Part shown: positions 1 through 11,723 of the stretch, piece by piece
How the letters are laid out: each line of letters opens with the position of its first letter
Numbering within the stretch: the first letter of the stretch is position 1
IMG/VR virus record: IMGVR_UViG_2713896789_000019
Coordinates: 1 to 11,723 of that record
Origin: a virus
Taxonomy: Duplodnaviria > Heunggongvirae > Uroviricota > Caudoviricetes
Length of the DNA: 11,723 nt
Reading direction: 5' to 3' (one strand)
Made by a program: the position numbers and the translations under genes
The notes under the pieces: generated by a model
What the model was told of the DNA's origin: nothing
What the model saw: the letters and a program-made list of their open reading frames with translations, nothing else
The model's database searches: none

Positions 1-906
1 CTAGTCTCCTCTGTTTGCTTGAGAGGTAGTGTGACGGTAATGGACCAGATATTTACTAACAACAGCATCCCTGCACTGAGATATAACTTCACGAAGGGTA
101 ATATTCAGAGCATCGCATTTCAGGTTAAGCGGAATAGCAAGTTTTGAACCGGTTTTTTCCTGAGTAATGTGCAACATGTCGTCCCATATATCAGAGAATT
201 TCAAATTGCAGATATCGCCTAAACGTTGTCCAGTAACAAGAGCAAGTAGCATGCCGCATTTTAAATAGGGCTGCCGTCTGCTTACGCTTTCAAATATTGC
301 CTGCCATTCGAGCAGTGACAATCTTTGGCGGTTTACTCGATTTCGCGGTTGTTTTGTTGCCTGCGCAGGGTTAAATCCTGGCGGAACATGTCCTGCGTGT
401 TGTGCTTCTTTGAAGACGTCGATCAACACCATTCTCACGACTTGCGCCATCCTGTTATGACCTTCAGCCTTTACAGCATCAATTATTTCGGCAATATCAA
501 GTGCGGTAATATCCTTGAGGTGTTGCATTCCACAATGCTCACGGAAAAGACGAATGGGTTTGCCTTTTTGCCGATAGGAGTTGGGTCTTAGTTCATTATG
601 TTGCAGCCTGTCCTCCTGGATAGAAATATATTTATCAAGCCATTCTGTCACCGTAATGTCTGAGCGCCTGCCTTTCATTCTTTCCAGACGCTCATTGACG
701 CTTAATATTTGTCTGGTACGTTGTTCAGCAATAATGGTATTTGCTTCAGTAGCAACTTGTTTTGCTTCATTCTCATCAGTTCCTAAGCTATGAAAACGAC
801 CGGATAGTGGATGTTTGTATTGCCAATATACCTTTCCGGTTCGCTTATCTAATTTGCAATATAAATTGGGTATAGAGATTTTGTGAGATCGGGGTCTAGC
901 AGCCAT
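1..906 (-). CDS. intD: Prophage tyrosine integrase (lambda Int family); the ORF ends about 70 aa before the expected catalytic His-x-x-Arg / His / Tyr region, so it is probably truncated or continues out of frame beyond the window edge
   Basis: 301-aa ORF with ATG at 904-906 (minus). The translation aligns by eye with lambda Int through the Arg box (LALVTGQRLGDI vs lambda LAVVTGQRVGDL) and Lys box (QEKTGSKLAIP vs QSKTGVKIAIP). It ends at ...HYRHTTSQANRGD before any HxLR or catalytic Tyr. The stop codon TAG (rc of 1-3) sits exactly at the window edge. Symbol inferred from DLP12 context (emrE/ybcK downstream), not verified. Confidence 0.8.
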   Translation of the reverse strand: MAARPRSHKISIPNLYCKLDKRTGKVYWQYKHPLSGRFHSLGTDENEAKQVATEANTIIAEQRTRQILSVNERLERMKGRRSDITVTEWLDKYISIQEDRLQHNELRPNSYRQKGKPIRLFREHCGMQHLKDITALDIAEIIDAVKAEGHNRMAQVVRMVLIDVFKEAQHAGHVPPGFNPAQATKQPRNRVNRQRLSLLEWQAIFESVSRRQPYLKCGMLLALVTGQRLGDICNLKFSDIWDDMLHITQEKTGSKLAIPLNLKCDALNITLREVISQCRDAVVSKYLVHYRHTTSQANRGD

Positions 907-1132
907 CAGCGATTATCCGTTGGAGTTTTGGGTTTGCGTTTATTGGGAGTTGCGGTTCTGCAAGCGTTCCTACAAAACGGGAATTTCGGTCAATCATCCA
1001 GTAGCGACCAACTTTTATAGCGGGTGGGGCCATCATTTTCCCTTGCGCGTATTTTTTCAGAACTCGCTCACTTGGTGCTAAGTCCCCAAATTCTTCTTTA
1101 GCCCAGTCCTGTAAAGTGATTAGTCGAGACAT
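896..1132 (-). CDS. xis: Excisionase (lambda Xis-like)
   Basis: 78-aa ORF immediately upstream of int, overlapping the int start by 11 nt as in lambda xis-int. Strong SD AGGAGG 4 nt upstream of the ATG at 1130-1132 (minus). N-terminus MSRLITLQDWAKEE...PPAIKVGRYWM resembles lambda Xis (MYLTLQEWNAR...PPPVKDGREYLF). Confidence 0.8.
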   Translation of the reverse strand: MSRLITLQDWAKEEFGDLAPSERVLKKYAQGKMMAPPAIKVGRYWMIDRNSRFVGTLAEPQLPINANPKLQRIIADGC

Positions 1133-1271
1133 TTGTCCTCCTCTTAGCTGCTGAGGGAGTTTGTGACCGATATATCTGACATGATATTAAGCTCATGGCA
1201 GGTACATCTCTTGACTGGTCATAGAGATAAATTTAATGCTGAGTAATGCAGTATTGAATTTATCAATTTTT

Positions 1272-1511
1272 CTATTTCCTGCGTATGGCACGTAACTTCT
1301 TAATGTGTTCTGCCGTTTCGATCTCTTCTGCTATTCGATCTGCATCAGCTTTATTCACAGGTTCAAAGTCATGATTAAAGCGGAACATGCTGGCGATACA
1401 TGTTCTGCCTTTTCGGATGTAGTGAACTTTGTTGTGGGTAGAACGCAGGATTTTGCAGGGAGTGCCGTGGTGGTCGACGTACCAGGTGTTAGGAAAAATG
1501 ATTCTGAACAT
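1272..1511 (-). CDS. Hypothetical small basic protein (79 aa), His/Cys-containing; function unknown
   Basis: ORF with a good SD (GAGGTG, 5-nt spacer) before the ATG at 1509-1511 (minus). Same orientation as the upstream cargo genes and xis-int. No family recognised by eye. Confidence 0.45.
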   Translation of the reverse strand: MFRIIFPNTWYVDHHGTPCKILRSTHNKVHYIRKGRTCIASMFRFNHDFEPVNKADADRIAEEIETAEHIKKLRAIRRK

Positions 1512-1558
1512 TTTTACACCTCAGTTGGACGATGTTGAAATTTGCTGCTTTGAAGCCA

Positions 1559-1792
1559 TCACAGTCCCCATTGTTTGTTCTTAAGTTCGATCTCCTCCTG
1601 GCAACTTGCACAAGTCCGACAACCCTGAACGGCCAGGCGTCTTCGTTCATCTATNNNNNNNNNNNNNNNNNNNNNNNNNNNNNNNNNNNNNNNNNNNNNN
1701 NNNNTGAATTGTTGGTTAATACGCTTGAGGGTGAATGCGAATAATAAAAAAGGAGCCTGTAGCTCCATGATGATTTTGTTTTTCATGCTCAC
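1559..1792 (-). CDS. Hypothetical ORF interrupted by the N-gap; frame continuity and true length unknown
   Basis: ATG at 1784-1786 (minus) with AAGGAA 8 nt upstream, about 50 nt downstream of the DGQHR gene stop. The reading frame runs into the N run at 1655-1704. The C-terminal piece contains a CxxCxxC cluster (QGCRTCASCQEE). Confidence 0.25.
   Translation of the reverse strand: MSMKNKIIMELQAPFLLFAFTLKRINQQFXXXXXXXXXXXXXXXXXIDERRRLAVQGCRTCASCQEEIELKNKQWGL
1655..1704. other. Run of 50 N: assembly/scaffold gap or masked sequence of unknown true length
   Basis: Directly visible in the sequence. Confidence 0.99.
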
Positions 1793-1843
1793 CGTTCCTT
1801 AAAGACGCCGTACAGCATGCTGATATGAGACAATGTTGATTCA

Positions 1844-2908
1844 TTAAGTTGTTTCCAGACTTCCTTTGGTAAAAGCTTGTATCAGTCTGTTTGCTGCTGC
1901 TTTCTGCGCTGCCACATTGGCAATAACAGATAGTTTTTCCTGGCTGGCTTTCGTGCAGATCCCCGCCCAGTTATCCATCAGAAAAAAATCCTCTCTTTCT
2001 GCAGAGCTGGTAGTTGCACATAGTTTTTCGATCATAGAAGTTATTTCTGCGATGGAATGATTAACCATCATCTGTTGAACCGCAAAACCGAAAGCGTTAA
2101 TCATTACTCCATGGAACTGAATATAATCGCGCTTGTACGTAGCGTGGTGTACACCATGTCGGATTGAGTCAATCTGAGTTAGTGTAATCCATGCCTCCCA
2201 GACAGATTCTATATATCCCATTTCAAGTTGTTGATTGCCGTTCCTAGCGAACTTTGACGTTGCATCAGTGAGTGCCTTGAAACTCACCCACATATTACTT
2301 TTTAATGGCACTACGTTGTGTTCAAAATCGGTTATATCGGCAAATACAGTATGTTGGGTCAGGAAGGATATCATTCCCTGAGCAATATCATCCCGGCCGT
2401 TATACGCCATATTGATGGTCGCTGATGGCTTAGAAACGTTGTTATTTATGTCCGAAAAGAACTGCTGCCGGGTTTTTAGCGGCAGATTCATTGTAAGCAT
2501 CATGGGAACCATGAGCGTTGATGGGGAACTTCGGCAAAATATCTCAATGCCAGCTGCACGATGTTGACCATCAAAAAGTTTTATTTCGGCGTCGAGGGGA
2601 ATTCTGGCTATACCAACATTTGTGTTGCCAAACGGTACAAATTCTATATTCGAATCACAGTTACCTACGAGAGGGGGAATGATAAAAGGCTCATTTCTTG
2701 AGTCTGCGTTAGTGAGATAATTTAAAAATTTTCGTACTCGATTTGGATTAATTTCTCGCTGAGAGCGTTCCAGTGTATGGCCGTAATTATCTGAAGCGAG
2801 GAAACGAGCCAGCGATCTTCCTGGTATGGTAAGGAAGAGTGTAACAGTACCACCCTGTACACCTTGCGATGCCGGAAATTCGAATGAATGATTACCAACC
2901 TGACTCAT
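1844..2908 (-). CDS. DGQHR-motif protein, DndB-like (ParB/sulfiredoxin-type) family; standalone, no dndCDE-like genes nearby
   Basis: 354-aa ORF with a strong SD (AGGAGG, 4-nt spacer) before the ATG at 2906-2908 (minus). Contains the literal motif ...EIKLFDGQHRAAGIE... that names the DGQHR domain of DndB-type proteins. GC is visibly lower than the flanking lambda-like O/P genes. Confidence 0.8.
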   Translation of the reverse strand: MSQVGNHSFEFPASQGVQGGTVTLFLTIPGRSLARFLASDNYGHTLERSQREINPNRVRKFLNYLTNADSRNEPFIIPPLVGNCDSNIEFVPFGNTNVGIARIPLDAEIKLFDGQHRAAGIEIFCRSSPSTLMVPMMLTMNLPLKTRQQFFSDINNNVSKPSATINMAYNGRDDIAQGMISFLTQHTVFADITDFEHNVVPLKSNMWVSFKALTDATSKFARNGNQQLEMGYIESVWEAWITLTQIDSIRHGVHHATYKRDYIQFHGVMINAFGFAVQQMMVNHSIAEITSMIEKLCATTSSAEREDFFLMDNWAGICTKASQEKLSVIANVAAQKAAANRLIQAFTKGSLETT

Positions 2909-3016
2909 ATATCCTCCTGTTTGTTATTTATCTTCTCAGCCAGCCGCTGTGCTTTCAGTGGATTTCTGATAACAGAAAGGCCGGGAAATACCCAGCCTCG
3001 CTTTGTAATGGAGTAG

Positions 3017-3271
3017 ACGAAAGTGATCGCGCCTAACGATATCCGTCTGATGCGTGAACGTGATGGACGTAACCACCGCGACATGTGTGTACTGTTCCGC
3101 TGGGCCTGCCAGGACAACTTCTGGTCCGGTAACGTGCTGAGTCCGGCCAAACTCCGCGACAAGTGGACCCAGCTCGAAATCAACCGGAACAAGCAACAGG
3201 CTGGCGTGACAGTCGGCAAACCAAAACTCGACCTGACAAACACTGACTGGATTTACGGGGTGGATCTATGA
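3017..3271 (+). pseudogene. O: Replication initiator protein O, C-terminal fragment only (N-terminal origin-binding part absent)
   Basis: The frame opens after a TAG at 3014-3016. The translation ends ...SPAKLRDKWTQLEINRNKQQAGVTVGKPKLDLTNTDWIYGVDL, which matches the C-terminus of lambda O as I recall it. Its stop overlaps the P start (ATGA) as in lambda. Confidence 0.75.
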
Positions 3272-3969
3272 AAAACATCGCCGCACAGATGGTTAACTTT
3301 GACCGTGAGCAGATGCGTCGGATCGCCAACAACATGCCGGAACAGTACGACGAAAAGCCACAGGTACAGCAGGTAGCGCAGATCATCAACGGTGTGTTCA
3401 GCCAGTTACTGGCAACTTTCCCGGCGAGCCTGGCTAACCGTGACCAGAATGAACTGAACGAAATCCGCCGCCAGTGGGTGCTGGCTTTTCGGGAAAACGG
3501 GATCACCACAATGGAACAGGTTAACGCTGGAATGCGCGTAGCCCGTCGGCAGAATCGACCATTCCTGCCATCACCCGGGCAGTTTGTCGCCTGGTGCCGG
3601 GAAGAAGCATCCGTTACCGCCGGGCTGCCAAACGCCAGCGAGCTGGTTGATATGGTTTACGAGTATTGCCGGAAGCGCGGGCTGTATCCGGATGCAGAGT
3701 CTTATCCGTGGAAATCAAACGCGCACTACTGGCTGGTTACCAACCTGTATCAGAACATGCGGGCCAATGCGTTGACTGACGCGGAATTACGGCGCAAGGC
3801 TGCCGATGAACTGTCCTGTATGACCGCACGAATTAACCGTGGTGAGGCTATACCTGAACCAGTAAAACAACTTCCTGTCATGGGCGGTAGACCTCTAAAT
3901 CGTGCACAGGCTCTGGCGAAGATCGCAGAAATCAAAGCTAAGTTTGGGCTGAAAGGAGCAAGGGTATGA
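3268..3969 (+). CDS. P: Replication protein P (DnaB helicase loader), lambda-type, apparently full length (233 aa)
   Basis: The translation MKNIAAQMVNFDREQMRRIANNMPEQYDEKPQVQQVAQIINGVFSQLL...KAKFGLKGARV is near-identical to lambda P as recalled. Same O-P-ren synteny and overlapping stops/starts. Confidence 0.9.
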   Translation: MKNIAAQMVNFDREQMRRIANNMPEQYDEKPQVQQVAQIINGVFSQLLATFPASLANRDQNELNEIRRQWVLAFRENGITTMEQVNAGMRVARRQNRPFLPSPGQFVAWCREEASVTAGLPNASELVDMVYEYCRKRGLYPDAESYPWKSNAHYWLVTNLYQNMRANALTDAELRRKAADELSCMTARINRGEAIPEPVKQLPVMGGRPLNRAQALAKIAEIKAKFGLKGARV

Positions 3970-4268
3970 CGGGCAAAGAGTCAATTATTCATTACCTGGG
4001 GACTCATAAGAAATTCTGTGCGCAGGACGTTGCCGCGGTAACAGGCGCAACGGTAACCAGCATAAATCAGGCTGCGGCTAAAATGGCGCGGGCAGGAATC
4101 CTAGTCGTTGATGGTAAGGTCTGGCGAACGGTGTATTATCGGTTCGCTACCAGAGAAGAATGGGAAGGAAAGGTGAGCACGAATTTGATTTTTAAGGAGT
4201 GTCGCCAGAGTGCCGCGATGAAACGGGTATTGAGGGTATATAAAAGAACATCAATGGGTACACAATGA
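3966..4268 (+). CDS. ren: Ren protein (lambda ren-like, Rex-exclusion escape)
   Basis: 100-aa ORF MTGKESIIHYLGTHKKFCAQDVAAVTGATVTSINQAAAKMARAGILVVDGKVWRTVYYRFATREE..., closely similar to lambda Ren. Start overlaps the P stop (GTATGA). Confidence 0.85.
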   Translation: MTGKESIIHYLGTHKKFCAQDVAAVTGATVTSINQAAAKMARAGILVVDGKVWRTVYYRFATREEWEGKVSTNLIFKECRQSAAMKRVLRVYKRTSMGTQ

Positions 4269-4335
4269 TGAAACAGGTGAGTTGAGTTCAAACTGTAGTA
4301 CAATTCTCTCCAGTTTGAACAGGAAAGAATATGCT

Positions 4336-4668
4336 ATGAATCCTTATATTTATCTTGGTGGTGCAATACTTGCAGAGGTCATTGGTACAACCTTAATGAA
4401 GTTTTCAGAAGGTTTTACACGGTTATGGCCATCTGTTGGTACAATTATTTGTTATTGTGCATCATTCTGGTTATTAGCTCAGACGCTGGCTTATATTCCT
4501 ACAGGGATTGCTTATGCTATCTGGTCAGGAGTCGGTATTGTCCTGATTAGCTTACTATCATGGGGATTTTTCGGCCAACGGTTGGACCTGCCAGCCATTA
4601 TAGGCATGATGTTGATTTGTGCCGGTGTGTTGGTTATTAATTTATTGTCACGAAGCACACCACATTAA
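4336..4668 (+). CDS. emrE: Small multidrug resistance (SMR) family efflux transporter EmrE
   Basis: 110-aa product MNPYIYLGGAILAEVIGTTLMKFSEGFTRLWPSVGTIICYCASFWLLAQTLAYIPTGIAYAIWSGVGIVLISLLSWGFFGQRLDLPAIIGMMLICAGVLVINLLSRSTPH matches E. coli EmrE, including the essential Glu14 context and four TM segments. The ORF-track start at 4282 is an upstream in-frame extension; the real start is the ATG at 4336. Confidence 0.95.
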   Translation: MNPYIYLGGAILAEVIGTTLMKFSEGFTRLWPSVGTIICYCASFWLLAQTLAYIPTGIAYAIWSGVGIVLISLLSWGFFGQRLDLPAIIGMMLICAGVLVINLLSRSTPH

Positions 4669-4698
4669 AAATAATTTGTTTTTAAACGACTAAAATAT

Positions 4699-4737
4699 GG
4701 AGGCTCGTATATTTATATGGGCCTCGTTTTATGCTTT
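4699..4737 (+). terminator. Possible weak intrinsic terminator downstream of emrE
   Basis: Short GC stem (GAGGC ... GCCTC) followed by TTTTATGCTTTTT. The stem is short and the loop large, so this is weak. Confidence 0.3.
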
Positions 4738-4923
4738 TTGTTAATGTCTTTAGTTTTTATTCATTCTTTTGTGCTTTCAAGATTATGGTGTAAGAAAATT
4801 GCAATACGATTATTGTTGTATATTCAAGATAATGTGACCTTAATTGTCTTTTTAAATAAAAATTAAACAAAAATCATATCTCACCACTAAGGTTTATAAA
4901 AGCATACTTTAGCAGGTGTCACC

Positions 4924-6450
4924 ATGAAAAAAGCCATAGCATATATGCGATTTTCATCACCAAGTCAGATGTCTGGTGATTCATTAAACCGCCAGAGAAG
5001 GCTTATTACTGAATGGCTAAAGGTAAATAGTGATTATTACCTTGATACCGTAACGTATGAAGATTTGGGGTTAAGCGCATTCAATGGAAAGCATGCACAA
5101 TCAGGAGCTTTTTCGGAATTTTTAGATGCTATAGAACATGGTTATATATTGCCAGGGACTACATTGTTAGTTGAAAGTCTGGACAGACTTTCAAGAGAAA
5201 AAGTCGGTGAGGCGATTGAGCGTCTGAAATTGATTTTGAATCACGGTATTGATGTTATAACTCTTTGCGATAATACAGTCTATAATATTGACTCATTGAA
5301 TGAGCCATATTCATTAATAAAAGCCATACTTATAGCACAAAGGGCAAATGAAGAAAGCGAGATAAAGTCAAGTCGGGTTAAATTATCATGGAAGAAAAAA
5401 CGGCAGGATGCACTGGAGTCAGGCACGATTATGACGGCGTCTTGTCCGAGATGGCTCTCATTGGATGACAAAAGAACGGCTTTTGTTCCAGACCCCGACA
5501 GGGTGAAAACTATTGAGCTAATTTTTAAACTCAGGATGGAAAGGCGCTCATTGAATGCAATAGCCAAGTATTTAAATGATCATGCTGTAAAGAATTTCTC
5601 AGGAAAAGAAAGTGCATGGGGACCTTCTGTAATTGAAAAATTATTAGCGAATAAAGCTCTGATAGGTATATGCGTACCTTCATATCGTGCAAGAGGTAAA
5701 GGAATAAGTGAAATCGCTGGCTATTATCCCAGAGTCATATCAGATGATTTGTTTTACGCTGTGCAGGAAATTCGGTTGGCACCTTTTGGTATTAGCAATA
5801 GTAGCAAAAATCCTATGTTGATAAATCTACTTCGAACAGTTATGAAGTGCGAGGCTTGTGGTAATACCATGATTGTTCATGCGGTATCTGGAAGTTTGCA
5901 TGGCTATTATGTTTGTCCGATGAGAAGACTGCATCGATGTGACAGGCCATCAATAAAGAGAGATTTGGTTGATTATAATATCATTAATGAGTTGCTTTTT
6001 AATTGTAGTAAAATCCAACCAGTTGAAAACAAGAAAGATGCTAATGAAACTTTAGAGTTGAAAATTATTGAGCTCCAGATGAAAATTAATAATTTAATTG
6101 CTGCATTATCTGTTGCGCCTGAAGTTACCGCTATAGCAGAAAAAATCAGAGTATTAGATAAGGAATTACGAAGGGCTTCTGTATCATTAAAAACTTTGAA
6201 GAGTAAAGCGGTGAGTTCACTTGGTGATTTTCATGCTATTGACTTAACCAGTAAAAATGGGCGAGAGCTATGTCGTACACTTGCCTATAAAACATTCGAA
6301 AAAATCATAATCAATACAGATAATAAAACCTGTGATATCTATTTTATGAATGGCATTGTTTTTAAACACTATCCTTTAATGAAAACAATATCCGCCCAGC
6401 AGGCGATAAGTACTCTCAAATATATGGTTGATGGTGAGGTTTATTTTTGA
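4924..6450 (+). CDS. ybcK: Large serine recombinase (resolvase/invertase-type catalytic domain plus recombinase and zinc-ribbon domains)
   Basis: 508-aa ORF with SD AGGTG 5 nt upstream. N-terminus AIAYMRFSSPSQ fits the serine-recombinase catalytic motif (R-x-S-x-x-x-Q). A Cys cluster CEACGN...YYVCP...HRCD fits the zinc ribbon of large serine recombinases, and a coiled-coil-like segment follows. AT-rich gene next to emrE, as in DLP12. Confidence 0.85.
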   Translation: MKKAIAYMRFSSPSQMSGDSLNRQRRLITEWLKVNSDYYLDTVTYEDLGLSAFNGKHAQSGAFSEFLDAIEHGYILPGTTLLVESLDRLSREKVGEAIERLKLILNHGIDVITLCDNTVYNIDSLNEPYSLIKAILIAQRANEESEIKSSRVKLSWKKKRQDALESGTIMTASCPRWLSLDDKRTAFVPDPDRVKTIELIFKLRMERRSLNAIAKYLNDHAVKNFSGKESAWGPSVIEKLLANKALIGICVPSYRARGKGISEIAGYYPRVISDDLFYAVQEIRLAPFGISNSSKNPMLINLLRTVMKCEACGNTMIVHAVSGSLHGYYVCPMRRLHRCDRPSIKRDLVDYNIINELLFNCSKIQPVENKKDANETLELKIIELQMKINNLIAALSVAPEVTAIAEKIRVLDKELRRASVSLKTLKSKAVSSLGDFHAIDLTSKNGRELCRTLAYKTFEKIIINTDNKTCDIYFMNGIVFKHYPLMKTISAQQAISTLKYMVDGEVYF

Positions 6451-6561
6451 GTAATAATCACTTTTTCAACCGTGCTATAGTAAGAAAGTTAGGTAAGTAC
6501 AATAAAATTATCTATCCTGAACGAAGCGTCCTGAGCTATGGTTTTACTATAGGGACTGCCA

Positions 6562-6861
6562 ATGGATGCTGGCGTTCTCGTTCTAGCAGTTCAACAATAC
6601 CCAATCACAAAACAATTCACTGATAACAAACTTTGTGCACGTGCTTGGTTATGGCGAGCAGGTGATGTGATGTTAACTGCCTGCCAGAACGTTACTCCAC
6701 TACTTCAGGTTGCGGAGCACCGCGAAGCCGGCCGCTTTACTTCTATCGAGCAAGAATATCCCCAGATACTCAACAGAGCGCGAGCAATCCTCGCCAGAGA
6801 AACGGCACATGTAAAATTCCAGCCGTGGCTGGATGATAAGTGGAGTCGAGTGTTACCATAA
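6562..6861 (+). CDS. Hypothetical protein (99 aa), unknown function
   Basis: ORF followed by a hairpin plus T-tract terminator. No convincing SD before the ATG at 6562 and no recognisable family, so it may be a gene remnant. Confidence 0.4.
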   Translation: MDAGVLVLAVQQYPITKQFTDNKLCARAWLWRAGDVMLTACQNVTPLLQVAEHREAGRFTSIEQEYPQILNRARAILARETAHVKFQPWLDDKWSRVLP

Positions 6862-6904
6862 TTCCGTCAGAATCTGTTCCAATAAAGTCACTAGTTAGAA
6901 ATAC

Positions 6905-6943
6905 TGCCAGCATTCTACGATGACGGAAGTGCTGGCATTTTTT
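6905..6943 (+). terminator. Rho-independent terminator downstream of the 99-aa ORF
   Basis: Perfect 8-bp stem TGCCAGCA (6905-6912) / TGCTGGCA (6930-6937) followed by TTTTTT (6938-6943). Confidence 0.5.
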
Positions 6944-7061
6944 GGGTAATATGCGAGTCCATTTCATAAAATACGGGTGCTGTAAACTGGACGATATAAT
7001 CTAAAATATACCATTACCAGTAGCGTTCAAATCGCTATGTGCCGATACGGATAAAATTATA

Positions 7062-7090
7062 TTGATTGTGCACATACCTTATTGGATATT
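7062..7090 (+). promoter_or_regulatory. Putative sigma70 promoter for the 169-aa ORF
   Basis: TTGATT (7062-7067), 17-nt spacer, GATATT (7085-7090), about 30 nt upstream of the ORF. The -10 is imperfect; by-eye call only. Confidence 0.3.
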
Positions 7091-7119
7091 ACTGAGGGGT
7101 ATTTATATAAGGTGTAACG

Positions 7120-7629
7120 ATGATGTGGAACTTTGACAGTGCCGACTTAAGTGCAATAGCAGCAGGTATTTCTGCGTTTGGCACATTAGCCGCAGCGGGG
7201 TCGGCGCTTGCAAGTTGGTACACGTCAAAAAAAGCGCTGCAGCTACAAAATAGAGTTTACCTTTATGAGTCTTTAAAGGCTTGCGCTGAGAGAGCCAATT
7301 CATCAGCTAAAGATAAGCGCGGATCTGAATGGAGCGTTAATGATGCAGCGGATATCATCAGGTGCCTAGTACGGGCGATGGAGATCATCAAGCAGGATAG
7401 CCAGCAGAAAGAAGGTAATCAGGCATTAATGTTGAAACAGTACTTTGTTAATCTGCTAATAATGGAACTGTACGAGGAAGTTCATAACGGTGATGCGGCT
7501 GATTCTGTTTTTAAAAGTACGGAACCTACACAAGTACTTGATAACTTATGGAGCAAATGGCAGGAGGCTATAGCTTTTTTTGATATTTGGAATTACCCAG
7601 TTGCGACTGAGGAAGACTTGGCAGACTAA
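7120..7629 (+). CDS. Hypothetical protein with N-terminal membrane anchor (169 aa); orphan prophage cargo
   Basis: SD AAGGTG 5 nt before the ATG at 7120. Residues about 10-33 (LSAIAAGISAFGTLAAAGSALASWY) form a hydrophobic helix followed by a charged soluble domain. Located in an AT-rich block between its own upstream terminator and the NinB-like fragment. Confidence 0.6.
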   Translation: MMWNFDSADLSAIAAGISAFGTLAAAGSALASWYTSKKALQLQNRVYLYESLKACAERANSSAKDKRGSEWSVNDAADIIRCLVRAMEIIKQDSQQKEGNQALMLKQYFVNLLIMELYEEVHNGDAADSVFKSTEPTQVLDNLWSKWQEAIAFFDIWNYPVATEEDLAD

Positions 7630-7823
7630 TTTTCAGCACATTTGATTTCCAATAATCAACCAGCCATAATCATGCCATTGGGGCCTGAACAACTCCGGTG
7701 ACTTCTGCGCTAAACGGGGACGTTTATGCGCACATACAATCCAACCTCTCTTCTCCATTCACAGATGCAGAAATGCACCTGCGATATTTTGCATCCAGCG
7801 TTTGATCTCTGCGGAGGTGAAGC

Positions 7824-8078
7824 GTGAACCTCCCACAAGATGGTATCAAATTGCATCGCGGTAACTTCACCGCTATCGGTCGGCAGATCCAGCCTTATCT
7901 GGAGGACGGCAAATGCTTTCGCATGGTGCTTAAACCGTGGCGCGAGAGACGCAGTCTTTCCCAGAATGCACTCAGCCACATGTGGTACAGCGAAATCAGT
8001 GAATACCTCATCAGCAAGGGTAAAACGTTCGCCACTCCAGCTTGGGTATCCGCACCGGCGGGCGCGTGCTGGCGGTAA
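7824..8078 (+). pseudogene. ybcN: NinB-like (Orf-family recombination mediator) gene, 5' fragment only; reading frame continues out of frame into J-derived sequence
   Basis: GTG start with GGAGGTG SD. The translation carries the R-x-RSL-SQN-x-x-x-H-x-W signature (RERRSLSQNALSHMW), comparable to lambda NinB (ERNRSLDQNRKLWACL). After about 74 aa the frame reads [11 protein letters not shown], which is J sequence in the wrong frame. Symbol by position in a DLP12-like layout, unverified. Confidence 0.55.
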
Positions 8079-8872
8079 ACAGCCAGACCCGGACGCTGAC
8101 GCTCGACCGTGAAATCACGCTGCCATCTTCCGGCACCACGCTGATAAGCCTGGTTGACGGGCAGGGGAGTCCGGTCAGCGTGGAGGTTCAGTCCGTCACC
8201 GACGGCGTGAAGGTGAAAGTGAGCCGTGTTCCTGACGGCGTTGCTGAATACAGCGTATGGGGGCTGAAGCTGCCGACGTTGCGCCAGCGCCTGTTCCGCT
8301 GCGTGAGTATCCGTGAGAACGACGACGGCACGTATGCCATCACCGCCGTGCAGCATGTACCGGAAAAAGAGGCCATCGTGGATATTGAGAACACCCCTGA
8401 CGGCATGCAGAGTCAGGTGCTGCTGGCGGCGGACAGGATTGCGATGGTTAATCCTGCGAATGGCAACACAAAACCGATGTTTGTTGGTCAGGGCGATCAG
8501 ATATTCATGAACGACGTGTTCCTGAAACGCCTGACGGCCCCCACCATTACCAGCGGTGGAAATCCACCGGCATTTTCCCTGACACCGGACGGAAAGCTGA
8601 CCGCTAAAAATGCGGATATCAGTGGCAGTGTGAATGCGAACGCCGGGACGCTCAACAATGTCACGGTAAATGAAAACTGTACGATTAAGGGCATGCTGGA
8701 GGCGACTCAGGTCAGAGGTGACTTCGTTAAAGCTGTATCCAAATCATTCCCGAAACAGGCTGGTACGTGGGGTAATACGGAAACACCAAACGGGACGGTT
8801 ACAGTCACCATCAGCGATGATCATAACTTTGACCGTCAAATCATTATTCCGCCCATTATCTTTAACGGAATA
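8024..8872 (+). pseudogene. J: Tail tip / host specificity protein J, 3' fragment (lambda J-like), lacking the N-terminal part and probably an internal segment
   Basis: The frame opens after a TAA at 8021-8023. The translation [31 protein letters not shown]...[53 protein letters not shown] and later [48 protein letters not shown] closely match two parts of lambda J as recalled. Homology ends near 8870 and the frame then reads stf sequence out of frame until a stop at 9010. Confidence 0.8.
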
Positions 8873-8873
8873 G

Positions 8874-11723
8874 CGTATAGCGATCCGGGAAGTGGTAATA
8901 ACCGATGCTGCAGGCTCAGCACGTGCCGCCAGCACGTCAGCCGGACAGGCCGCGTCGTCGGCTCAGTCAGCGTCTTCCAGCGCAGGAACGGCATCGACAA
9001 AGGCCCGTGAAGCAGCAAAAAGTGCTGCTGCTGCAGAGTCCTCAAAAAGCGCGGCAGCTACCAGTGCCGGTGCGGCGAAAACGTCAGAAACGAATGCGGC
9101 AGCGTCACAACAATCAGCAGCCACTTCTGCATCCGCCGCGACCACGAAGGCGTCAGAAGCAGCCACCTCAGCCCGGGATGCGGCGGCCTCAAAAGAGGCA
9201 GCGAAATCATCAGAAACGAACGCATCATCAAGCGCCAGTAGTGCCGCTTCCTCGGCAACGGCGGCAGGCAATTCCGCGAAGGCGGCAAAGACGTCTGAGA
9301 CAAACGCCAGGTCTTCTGAAACGGCAGCGGGACAGAGCGCCTCGGCTGCGGCAGGCTCAAAAACAGCGGCTGCGTCGTCTGCCAGTGCCGCGTCAACAAG
9401 TGCCGGGCAGGCCTCAGCCAGTGCCACCGCCGCCGGAAAATCGGCAGAAAGCGCCGCATCGTCTGCTTCAACAGCCACAACGAAGGCTGGCGAAGCCGCT
9501 GAACAGGCCAGCGCAGCAGCGAGGTCTGCATCCGCAGCGAAGACATCCGAAACGAACGCGAAAGCCTCGGAAACCAGTGCAGAATCCTCAAAAATGGCAG
9601 CTGCATCGTCCGCCAGTTCGGCGGCGTCATCGGCATCATCTGCGTCTGCTTCAAAAGATGAGGCGAGCAGACAGGCATCAGCAGCGAAAGGCAGCGCCAC
9701 GACAGCATCCACGAAGGCGACAGAGGCAGCTGGCAGTGCGACGGCGGCATCTCAGAGCAAAACTACTGCTGAATCCGCTGCGACCCGTGCGGAAGCTGCT
9801 GCTGATCGTGCTGAAGAGATTGCCGGTGCAGTTGCGATGGAAGACGCAAGCCTTACAACTAAAGGTGTTGTGAAACTTAGCAGTGCTGTTGATAGCACCA
9901 GTGAATCGCTGGCCGCAACGCCAAAAGCAGTTAAAGCAGCCAATGACAATGCGAATAGCAGGGTGCCATCTAACCGAAAAGTTAACGGAAAAGCACTGAC
10001 TGCGGATATAACATTAACGCCGAAAGATATTGGTACTTTAAATTCAGTAACGATGTCTTTCTCTGGCGGGGCTGGGTGGTTCAAACTGGCTACGGTTACC
10101 ATGCCACAAGCGAGTTCCATCGTTTACATCGCATTGATTGGTGGCGCTGGTTACAACGTCGGTTCCCCACATCAGGCAGGCATTTCAGAACTGGTTCTAC
10201 GAGCAGGCAATGGAAACCCCAAAGGAATTACCGGGGCTTTGTGGAAGCGTACAGCCGTCGGATTAACGAATTTCGCCTGGATCAACACATCCGGCGATAC
10301 ATATGATATTTACGTTGAGATTGGCAATTATGCGACGAGTGTAAATATCCATTGGGATTGTACTGCAAATGCGTCAGTTTCTGTTTATACCTCGCCAACA
10401 TATTCAGCGAGTAAGCCTTCCAGCGTTACCTATGGTGTTGTTTATACGATGTATAGCTCACATCAGAAACCTACACCATCAGATATTGGAGCACTGCCAA
10501 CAACCGGAGGAACAGTTTCAGGTCCGTTGTCTGTTACAGGTGGATTAACTGGTTCATTGAATGGTAATGCAAGTACAGCCACGAAATTGCAGACGGCAAG
10601 ATCTATCGGTGGAGTTGTTTTCGACGGTTCTGCAAATATTAACCTTCCAGGTGTAAACACTACGGGTAATCAGAACACCACTGGTAATGCTGCAACTGCT
10701 ACAAAACTCCAGACTGCAAGAAAAATATCCGGTGTTCCATTTGATGGTTCCAAAGATATTACTTTAACCGCCGCGCATGTGGCTGCTTTTGCCAGAAGGG
10801 CAACGGATACATATGCCGATGCGGATGGTGGCGTTCCCTGGAATGCCGAATCAGGCGCTTACAATGTCACCCGCTCTGGCGACAGCTATATTCTGGTTAA
10901 CTTCTATACCGGAGTCGGAAGTTGCCGGACCCTGCAGATGAAGGCGCATTACAGAAATGGTGGTCTGTTCTACCGTTCTTCAAGAGACGGTTATGGTTTT
11001 GAGGAAGGCTGGGCAGAAGTTTATACCTCGAAAAATCTTCCACCAGAAAGCTACCCAGTCGGCGCACCAATCCCGTGGCCATCAGATACCGTTCCGTCTG
11101 GTTATGCCCTGATGCAGGGGCAGACTTTTGACAAATCTGCTTACCCGAAACTTGCAGCCGCTTATCCGTCAGGCGTGATCCCTGATATGCGTGGCTGGAC
11201 GATTAAGGGCAAACCTGCCAGTGGTCGGGCCGTATTGTCTCAGGAACAGGACGGCATTAAATCGCACACCCACAGCGCCAGCGCATCCAGTACGGATTTG
11301 GGGACGAAAACCACATCGTCGTTTGATTACGGAACCAAATCCACGAATAACACCGGGGCGCATACCCATAGTATTAGCGGGACCGCAAATAGTGCCGGTG
11401 CGCACCAACACAAGAGTTCCGGTGCATTTGGTGGCACGAACACGAGCATTTTCCCTAATGGTTATACCGCGATTTCAAATCTAAGCGCGGGGATTATGAG
11501 CACAACAAGCGGTAGTGGCCAGACTCGTAATGCAGGGAAGACATCATCAGATGGTGCTCATACCCACTCGCTGTCCGGCACTGCTGCAAGCGCAGGCGCA
11601 CATGCACATACTGTCGGTATTGGTGCTCATACGCACTCCGTTGCGATTGGCTCACACGGACACACCATCACCGTTAACGCTGCTGGTAACGCGGAAAACA
11701 CCGTCAAAAACATCGCATTTAAC
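8874..11723 (+). CDS. stf: Side tail fibre protein (lambda Stf / StfR-like), 5'-truncated and running off the 3' end of the window
   Basis: The frame opens after a TAG at 8871-8873 and stays open to the window end (950 codons). The translation ...[21 protein letters not shown]...[21 protein letters not shown]...LAATPKAVK... and the C-terminal [71 protein letters not shown]...[25 protein letters not shown] matches lambda/Rac side tail fibre including the His-rich GAHxHS repeats. The first possible start is the GTG at 8892. Not in the ORF track because there is no in-window stop. Confidence 0.85.
9000..9760 (+). repeat. Low-complexity Ala/Ser/Thr-rich coding repeats within stf (at least four copies of K-[TS]-SETNA plus degenerate ASxASxA units)
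   Basis: Repeated nucleotide units such as aaaacgtcagaaacgaatgcggc / aaatcatcagaaacgaacgcatc / aagacgtctgagacaaacgccag / aagacatccgaaacgaacgcgaa. GC-rich GCN/TCN codon runs create long stop-free frames on both strands. Confidence 0.7.
10560..10770 (+). repeat. Two tandem copies of a roughly 36-aa tail-fibre repeat unit (GN[AS][10 protein letters not shown].I.GV.FDGS..I.L) inside stf
   Basis: Translation [29 protein letters not shown] ... [29 protein letters not shown]; the nucleotide units are about 120 bp apart. Confidence 0.6.

Follow-up and report, generated by a model that had tools for sequence, protein, structure and literature searches.

We analysed positions 1 to 11,723 of the IMG/VR virus record IMGVR_UViG_2713896789_000019 (Caudoviricetes), a stretch of 11,723 nucleotides referred to here as the window, and asked what is encoded by an open reading frame (ORF) of 169 codons that it carries on the + strand at positions 7120–7629. 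The window is a short DLP12-like lambdoid prophage of Escherichia coli that has suffered large deletions. It is 100% identical to sequence of E. coli NCTC9100 and 99.9% identical to that of several poultry isolates. The first part of the prophage contains, in this order, int, xis, a DndB-like gene, a 3' fragment of O, P, ren, emrE and ybcK, which encodes a large serine recombinase. These are followed by a remnant of a rha/antirepressor gene, the 169-aa ORF, the leader of ylcH–ybcN (ninB), and a cut ninB gene that is joined to tail-tip and tail-fibre genes.

The interval in which the ORF resides is filled differently in related prophages. In the DLP12 prophage of K-12, ybcL and ybcM fill the space between ybcK and ylcH–ybcN, and the 169-aa ORF is absent. 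It is also absent from lambda, where the gap between ren and ninB measures 73 bp. Because the contents of this interval differ among the window, K-12 DLP12 and lambda, the ORF lies in a true cargo slot. On its right-hand side the slot ends at a sharp junction, with homology to the K-12 ybcM–ylcH–ybcN region setting in ~12 nt past the stop codon of the ORF. The boundary is formed by the conserved non-coding leader of ninB/ybcN (7641–7823, + strand; GTG start codon at 7824), which K-12 DLP12 also has and which lies outside the cargo.

To the left of the ORF lies the truncated rha/antirepressor remnant (6562–6861, + strand), 99 aa long, with a match to the P22AR C-terminal domain (Pfam PF10548, E 9e-13). 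The rha gene has its full length of 249 aa in phage PhiR5_1 and encodes 202 aa in PhiR26_1. The rha ORF has one of five lengths (249, 202, 107, 99 or 79 aa) in 39 E. coli-type IMG/VR loci, while the 169-aa ORF has 169 aa in every one of them. The remnant is a decaying upstream neighbour and lies outside the cargo unit. The stage of rha decay varies by strain (L032 to L077, with an internal stop in O104:H4), the rha terminator and the downstream ORF being retained.

The 169-aa ORF ends in a TAA stop codon and corresponds to RefSeq WP_000990013.1 (hypothetical protein) and to PHROG 1779. Its ATG at 7120 is preceded, at a distance of 5 nt, by the Shine–Dalgarno sequence AAGGTG (7109–7114, + strand), and relatives carry Shine–Dalgarno sequences of the GAGG/AGGAG type at the equivalent place. 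In PhiR5_1 the first ATG is replaced by ATA, so the second ATG (7123) suffices. Across seven loci with protein identities of 45–64%, pN was 0.21–0.36 and pS 0.78–0.96, the synonymous sites being saturated. By these measures ORF 7120–7629 exceeds chance by a wide margin and is a real gene under purifying selection. The heavy deletion of the window prophage might invite the view that the ORF is a non-functional leftover of a decaying element. This is scarcely credible, as it is effectively refuted by strong purifying selection across genera, and 46 of the 47 IMG/VR loci, as well as the inducible phages PhiR26_1 and PhiR5_1, have the ORF intact.

Of 5,426 complete E. coli genomes, 180 have the allele found in the window (coverage at least 80%), among them O104:H4 strains. 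A second, divergent allele occupies the same slot in 26 further complete E. coli genomes; its protein identity of ~49% is a figure drawn by analogy with the closely similar allele of locus L011. Together, the two alleles occur in ~4% of complete E. coli genomes, or roughly 1 in 25. Elsewhere, the gene was found in 47 IMG/VR contigs, in only 2 of 50,697 deposited phage genomes (PhiR26_1 and PhiR5_1) and in only 3 of 185,579 species-representative genomes, belonging to a Scandinavium, an Enterobacter cloacae and a Phytobacter. In O104:H4, emrE, ybcK, rha, rusA and terminase genes have become pseudogenes and the 169-aa ORF is intact; in the window prophage, ninB is truncated, yet the ORF is again intact. 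Such retention amid prophage decay is suggestive of selection in the host, but the evidence is inconclusive because the alleles involved are very recent.

Upstream of the ORF, a sigma-70-type promoter candidate (7062–7090, + strand) consists of a –35 element TTGATT (7062–7067), a 17-nt spacer and a –10 element GATATT (7085–7090), and transcription is predicted to start at a G run at ~7096–7098. The candidate matches 8 of 12 consensus positions, which explains why it was missed by a generic promoter scan. The window has a single match to TTGNTT-N17-GATATT, and 200 shuffles gave none. An element of the form TTG(A/C)T(T/A)-17-GATATT also lies 5' of the gene in PhiR26_1, L005, L006 (Scandinavium; TTGCCT), L008, L029, L069, L071/72 and L075/76, and the relatives share the same order of promoter-like motif, G-rich start region, Shine–Dalgarno sequence and ATG. 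The element recurs despite saturated synonymous sites and differing upstream genes; in an alignment of six loci whose upstream genes differ, the TTG and GATATT columns are invariant. Two other interpretations of this region were discarded. A lambda CII-box reading was ruled out on inspection, as the second TTGC repeat is absent, and an inverted repeat on either side of the window's –10 element was not significant as an RNA structure (z –0.58).

Between the rha remnant and the promoter candidate, RNA folding identified an intrinsic terminator (6905–6943, + strand), composed of a hairpin (6905–6937) and a tract of six U residues (6938–6943). Its folding energy is –18.1 kcal/mol (z –2.9), and equal folding was reached by 2 of 200 shuffles. 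A terminator scan missed this hairpin because its loop exceeds 8 nt. In the related loci L072, L027, L019 and L025, a strong intrinsic terminator also follows the gene itself, ~15–45 nt past the stop codon (–11 to –19 kcal/mol; z –2.4 to –4.7), and in L071, L072 and L076 a terminator past the stop codon is followed at once by the conserved ninB leader. The predicted cassette is composed of promoter, ORF and, in relatives only, terminator, and is placed just before the ninB leader.

A first-pass annotation of this DNA, made from the letters alone, had described the ORF as having a good Shine–Dalgarno sequence, a putative promoter and a clean terminator just upstream, in a variable site between the recombinase block and the nin region. 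The site is confirmed, the ORF lying between ybcK and ninB/ybcN, and the Shine–Dalgarno sequence stands with its 5-nt spacing. The promoter is borne out in silico by conservation of TTGATT-17-GATATT in at least eight divergent lineages, and the terminator by the hairpin and U6 tract 3' of the rha remnant's stop codon. The gene is present or absent between conserved genes with a sharp junction, has a promoter of its own as judged in silico, and differs in base composition from what follows, with a G+C content of 0.42–0.46 over the ORF versus 0.51–0.64 in ninB and the tail genes. On these sequence features we classify it as a moron, an autonomous single-gene accessory cassette of DLP12/lambda-like prophages in a textbook arrangement.

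A second group of alleles (L011 of Enterobacter, 5900–5940; L012 of Phytobacter, 5960–6000; L080 of E. coli, 4815–4856) carries a different arrangement, in which a perfect TATAAT precedes a CCCCTC...GAGGGG hairpin. The 3' arm of this hairpin is at the same time the ribosome-binding site. The hairpins of L011 and L080 are followed by a U-run that directly adjoins the ATG; there is no such run in L012, where the ATG is ~17 nt further on. It is possible that the hairpin with its U-run would terminate read-through transcripts or mask their binding site while sparing transcripts from the gene's own promoter, and that the hairpin of this group is a built-in insulator.

The product of the ORF matches PHROG 1779 over its full length (E 1.2e-102; residues 1–169 against profile positions 1–169 of 169), a family without an assigned function. 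An exhaustive hidden Markov model search of 1.84 billion representatives retrieved 35 proteins, nearly all of ~150–180 aa or shorter fragments. The sole longer member, P0042 (288 aa), adds three N-terminal hydrophobic segments, and none of the 35 proteins is fused to an informative domain. The family forms 15 clusters at 90% identity. Scans of the protein against Pfam and NCBIfam gave no match, and the 31 family members, when all were compared with Pfam, yielded scattered sub-threshold noise only. A sequence search of the PDB with the family profile returned nothing specific, only a designed transmembrane coiled coil (E 6.5), and Foldseek against viral structures returned nothing at E ≤ 0.001. 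A search for literature on WP_000990013.1, PHROG 1779 or the UniProt entry found none. The protein family is, as far as such comparisons reach, uncharacterised and without kinship to known exclusion or defence proteins, whereas the kind of element it belongs to is well known.

Near its N-terminus the protein has an Ala/Gly/Ser-rich hydrophobic helix (codons 10–32; 7147–7215, + strand), which is predicted from hydropathy and flank charges to be a transmembrane anchor with the N-terminus out and the C-terminus in. A hydrophobic segment occupies the same position in all 31 family members, with a Kyte–Doolittle (KD) 19-residue mean of 1.5–2.5. The N-terminal flank is acidic, with no Lys or Arg in 27 of the 31, and the C-terminal flank carries a charge of +1 to +5 in 28 and of 0 or –1 in the other three. 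Taken with the positive-inside rule, these flank charges predict that a short N-tail is external and that the remaining chain is cytoplasmic. The sequence has the features of a bitopic inner-membrane protein of this orientation, the window allele being a marginal case. A signal peptide was ruled out, as the N-region lacks positive charge and the residue before the invariant S32 is variable and often large.

The helix is the most conserved long region of the protein (mean entropy 1.74 bits), and only the seven-residue C-tail has a lower value (1.45). Positions 18, 19, 21, 22, 24–26, 28, 29 and 32 are fixed for small residues, and positions 20, 23, 27 and 30 for large ones. With so strict a small-residue pattern, the helix is probably a packing surface rather than a passive anchor. 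The C-terminal domain of ~135 aa is acidic (net charge –8) and all-helical. AlphaFold2, run with an alignment of 31 sequences, gave a model (pLDDT 82.9) in which one helix spans residues 7–63, a helical bundle extends as far as residue 154, and a loop leads on to the tail. Column entropy is lower in the acidic C-terminal tail T-E-E-D-L-A-D (codons 163–169; 7606–7626, + strand) than anywhere else. In the close alignment T163, E165, D166, L167 and D169 are invariant, giving the form T-[DE]-E-D-L-x-D, and most distant members retain the tail; across the family, the ending is D-E-D-L-x-D in most members. Near-invariant residues elsewhere are S32, Q43, L52, A56, N60, W71, A86, I90, F109, L113 and W147. 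The family alignment contains no conservation pattern resembling a catalytic site.

Close relatives (at least 45% identity) lie downstream of replication genes and close upstream of a ninB-type gene, which encodes NinB or, at the equivalent place, a DUF1367 protein. In most of these loci the gene is the last before the ninB-type gene; L027 and L029 have one or two small ORFs in between. The upstream neighbours vary, among them Rha, DUF551, Ea8.5 and unknowns.

The first-pass annotation had recognised no family for a protein with one N-terminal hydrophobic helix and a charged domain, and had named remote-homology, structure and topology prediction and the gene's distribution in other prophages as checks. 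Apart from PHROG 1779, which has no assigned function, the lack of a recognised family held in Pfam, NCBIfam, PADLOC and the PDB, and neither homology nor structure searches identified the protein as a fragment of a known structural or housekeeping gene. The architecture proved common to all 31 family members, the topology prediction gave one helix with N out and C in (marginally so for the window allele), and at the equivalent site in other prophages the gene recurs before a ninB-type gene with varying upstream neighbours.

What would such a cassette do? We favour, with a probability of roughly 0.35–0.4, the interpretation that the product is a lysogen-expressed factor acting at the inner membrane to exclude other phages, through either an entry block or an abortive infection that damages the membrane. 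We infer this from the moron design, the retention in dead prophages, the constrained transmembrane helix and the presence of defence neighbours. The neighbours in question are SNIPE/PD-lambda-1, which occupies the same ren–ninB slot in PhiR26_1 and in E. coli 118UI, and the PADLOC candidate PDC-S31, which lies two genes upstream of the ORF in L031. SNIPE/PD-lambda-1 is a validated membrane-bound DUF4041 defence nuclease that cuts phage DNA during injection (PMC13190303). It shares the cargo slot with our ORF but differs from it in size (~500 aa), in its nuclease domain and in being encoded on the opposite strand; the product of the ORF lacks a recognisable domain of any kind, nuclease or other, and has no PADLOC match. 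An exclusion or abortive-infection role of the ORF is plausible but unproven. A separate observation on the same slot concerns one lineage, in which a block of three genes (267, 213 and 282 aa) lies directly upstream of the ORF (L074, 599–2929; L027, 2599–4929). These genes had no Pfam or PADLOC match and are unexplained same-slot cargo.

The product is predicted to insert into the inner membrane in the manner of a Pf3-coat-type protein. Its acidic N-tail of ~9 residues would be exposed to the periplasm, followed by a single Ala/Gly/Ser-rich transmembrane helix, and the acidic helical domain of ~135 residues, ending in D-E-D-L-x-D, would lie on the cytoplasmic side. The transmembrane helix could self-associate or bind a host membrane protein. 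Two routes to phage exclusion may be envisaged. The protein could interfere with genome entry via an inner-membrane channel, or its cytoplasmic domain could sense a phage product, upon which the transmembrane helices would assemble and damage the membrane in an abortive infection. Extending this to the family, one may tentatively entertain PHROG 1779 as an unrecognised single-gene anti-phage system, in which the small-residue helix would be the effector (a pore or channel block) and the acidic domain and tail a sensor or regulator.

Several observations weigh against phage exclusion. In the window copy no terminator follows the ORF, as the ninB leader shared with K-12 begins ~12 nt past the stop codon. 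A scan of the protein against PADLOC-DB v2 returned 0 families at E ≤ 1, and structure searches of the PDB produced generic helical matches only and no fold relative. The depositors of the PhiR26_1 record annotated PD-lambda-1 and left the 169-aa ORF 'hypothetical'. The window allele is the weakest case of the family in terms of hydrophobicity, with a KD mean of 1.59 and a Hessa scale sum of +2.7 kcal/mol, and its insertion into the membrane is predicted to be plausible but marginal. Further points concern the genomic context. The orientation of the gene is constant, always on the same strand as the early operon. The distant relatives (the 'MSWHxGDW' group) reside on the other arm of the genome, in pL-side early operons between N/cI and xis–int. 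In one of these (L025), the family gene overlaps a homologue of the DNA polymerase III theta subunit by 4 nt and is translationally coupled to it.

The marginal hydrophobicity of the window allele could also mean that the protein is soluble or inserts only conditionally, its Ala-rich N-terminal helix serving in coiled-coil formation or oligomerisation and the protein acting in the cytoplasm. The large residues at positions 20, 23, 27 and 30 have a heptad-like a/d spacing, and AlphaFold2 predicts the helix of residues 7–63 to be continuous, both of which are in keeping with this idea. We nevertheless regard it as distinctly unlikely. Many relatives are clearly hydrophobic at the same position (KD up to 2.5, Hessa sum below 0), the combination of an N-flank free of Lys and Arg with a basic C-flank runs across the family, and P0042 joins the family sequence to three more hydrophobic segments.

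The genomic context leads to the main rival of phage exclusion, namely that the gene is an early lytic-cycle accessory that serves the phage as a counter-defence, anti-exclusion or host-takeover factor. Such a protein would use its transmembrane helix and acidic tail to neutralise a membrane-associated protein of the host or of a prophage. Ren, the product of an adjacent gene, is said to act as an anti-exclusion factor against Rex. Co-orientation with early transcription and the position as last gene before ninB in the pR operon are what one would expect of an early gene. The pL-side contexts mean that the family may have a role in lytic growth; in two of the three distant contexts the theta (HOT-like) homologue directly precedes the gene (L022, 6160–6875; L025, 6762–7540, the latter with the 4-nt overlap). 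A domain without conserved catalytic-looking residues, ending in an acidic tail, would likewise suit a binder or decoy. An operon gene, however, needs neither a promoter conserved in at least eight lineages nor flanking terminators, and the ORF is intact in prophage remnants that are incapable of lytic growth. On balance we consider service to the lytic cycle possible, if doubtful.

The moron architecture and the retention in decayed prophages would also fit a lysogenic-conversion factor unconnected with phage conflict, that is, a membrane protein with effects on the physiology of the host envelope or on tolerance of stress. Bor and Lom are conversion factors of this general type, for serum resistance and adhesion, and the drug efflux gene emrE is among the neighbouring cargo. 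But the protein is predicted to be mostly cytoplasmic with ~9 residues outside, unlike conversion factors that act at the surface, and the family is restricted to the early regions of lambdoid prophages. We consider this unlikely. A conversion factor, a soluble protein and a dead ORF are all less likely than either phage exclusion or a function in the service of the phage.

Phage exclusion by a moron product has a precedent in form. In the moron concept of Juhala and Hendrix, extra genes of this kind include that of HK97 gp15, a small inner-membrane exclusion protein from a lambdoid moron. The ORF resembles lambdoid exclusion morons in being one small gene of lower G+C content that is inserted between conserved phage genes, with a predicted promoter of its own and, in relatives, a terminator; an N-terminal membrane helix and plausible expression from the prophage would add to the likeness. 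In contrast to HK97 gp15-type morons, to which it has no sequence kinship, it encodes a larger protein with a cytoplasmic domain of ~135 aa and is located ahead of ninB in the early region, not among tail genes.

The first-pass annotation had proposed a single-gene exclusion or abortive-infection cargo and had compared it with lambda SieB and P22 SieA. The single-gene cargo stands, as an autonomous moron in a variable slot, and the likeness to Sie proteins holds in position and architecture only. Like P22 SieA, P22 SieB and lambda SieB, the product is prophage-encoded, of a similar size (~160–190 aa) and, by prediction, membrane-associated (by annotation in the case of the Sie proteins), and P22 sieA and sieB have annotated promoters of their own. 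Homology to these three proteins was not found in hhalign comparisons with the 31-sequence family profile (probability 0.05–0.14%). The ORF lies outside the SieA and SieB families, whose genes occupy other genome positions (the immI and pL regions).

A different parallel concerns the helix itself. SAR/pinholin-type and glycine-zipper helices are dominated by Gly, Ala, Ser and Thr, are weakly hydrophobic and have a regular stripe of small residues. The transmembrane segment of the ORF is likewise rich in small residues, weakly hydrophobic and striped. Unlike in SAR/pinholin proteins, its flanking charges predict the reverse orientation, in which the large domain is cytoplasmic, and the gene does not belong to a lysis cassette.

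If phage exclusion proves correct, the ORF would be a new and very compact defence gene without known relatives, carried by about one complete E. coli genome in 25, the outbreak lineage O104:H4 among them, and together with SNIPE it would support the ren–ninB slot of lambdoid prophages as a defence hotspot. If the gene instead serves the phage, it would encode a membrane-anchored counter-defence or takeover factor, of which, to our knowledge, few are known. Under any reading, the conserved transmembrane pattern and the acidic tail offer direct mutational handles. As it stands, the gene is an uncharacterised moron of a common type, which will not surprise a specialist, and a reasonable candidate for a defence screen.

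The ninB leader that bounds the cargo has features of its own. It is probably the portion of a longer query that was matched in ~2,950 of 5,426 E. coli genomes, and it also occurs in Klebsiella and Enterobacter phages. At its start lies a promoter-like TTGATT-17-CATAAT (7642–7670), in which TTGATT-N7-AATCAA forms a palindrome. Two hairpins follow from about the predicted transcription start, and a third comes after them. Hairpin 1 has a nearly invariant loop, CCUGAAC(A/U)(A/C), and hairpin 2 the loop GGGA; the stem sequences of both vary by lineage, with pairing always kept. An annotated ylcH-type ORF of 33 aa (7726–7827) overlaps the element. Rfam gave no match over 6400–8100, and the phi80 annotation labels hairpin 2 only as 'IR4'. 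As published, the put RNA of HK022 consists of two bulged stem-loops of ~70 nt, the first with a short triple helix (PMC9378689). The layout of the ninB leader, a promoter followed by two stem-loops, resembles that of HK022 putL in a comparison based on the published description only. By this analogy, the leader could be a regulatory RNA or an antitermination/termination element for the nin region.

Downstream of the leader, the ninB/ybcN frame (GTG 7824, + strand) ends after ~70 codons near 8040 and runs on into lambda J-like tail-tip sequence. This junction between ninB and the tail-tip gene suggests deletion of the remaining nin, Q, lysis and head/tail regions. RefSeq labels both the ninB fragment and the tail-tip fragment as partial. 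At the other end of the window, near int–xis, lies a solitary gene for a DndB-like/DGQHR-domain protein of 354 aa (1844–2908, – strand; Pfam DndB, E 4e-46; PADLOC DndB, E 4e-37), with no further dnd genes beside it in the window. A short run of masked bases is found at ~1650–1700. Matching genomes are ~760 bp longer than the window across the same span, to which they align in three pieces, and sequence must therefore have been masked or removed near ~1650–1700.

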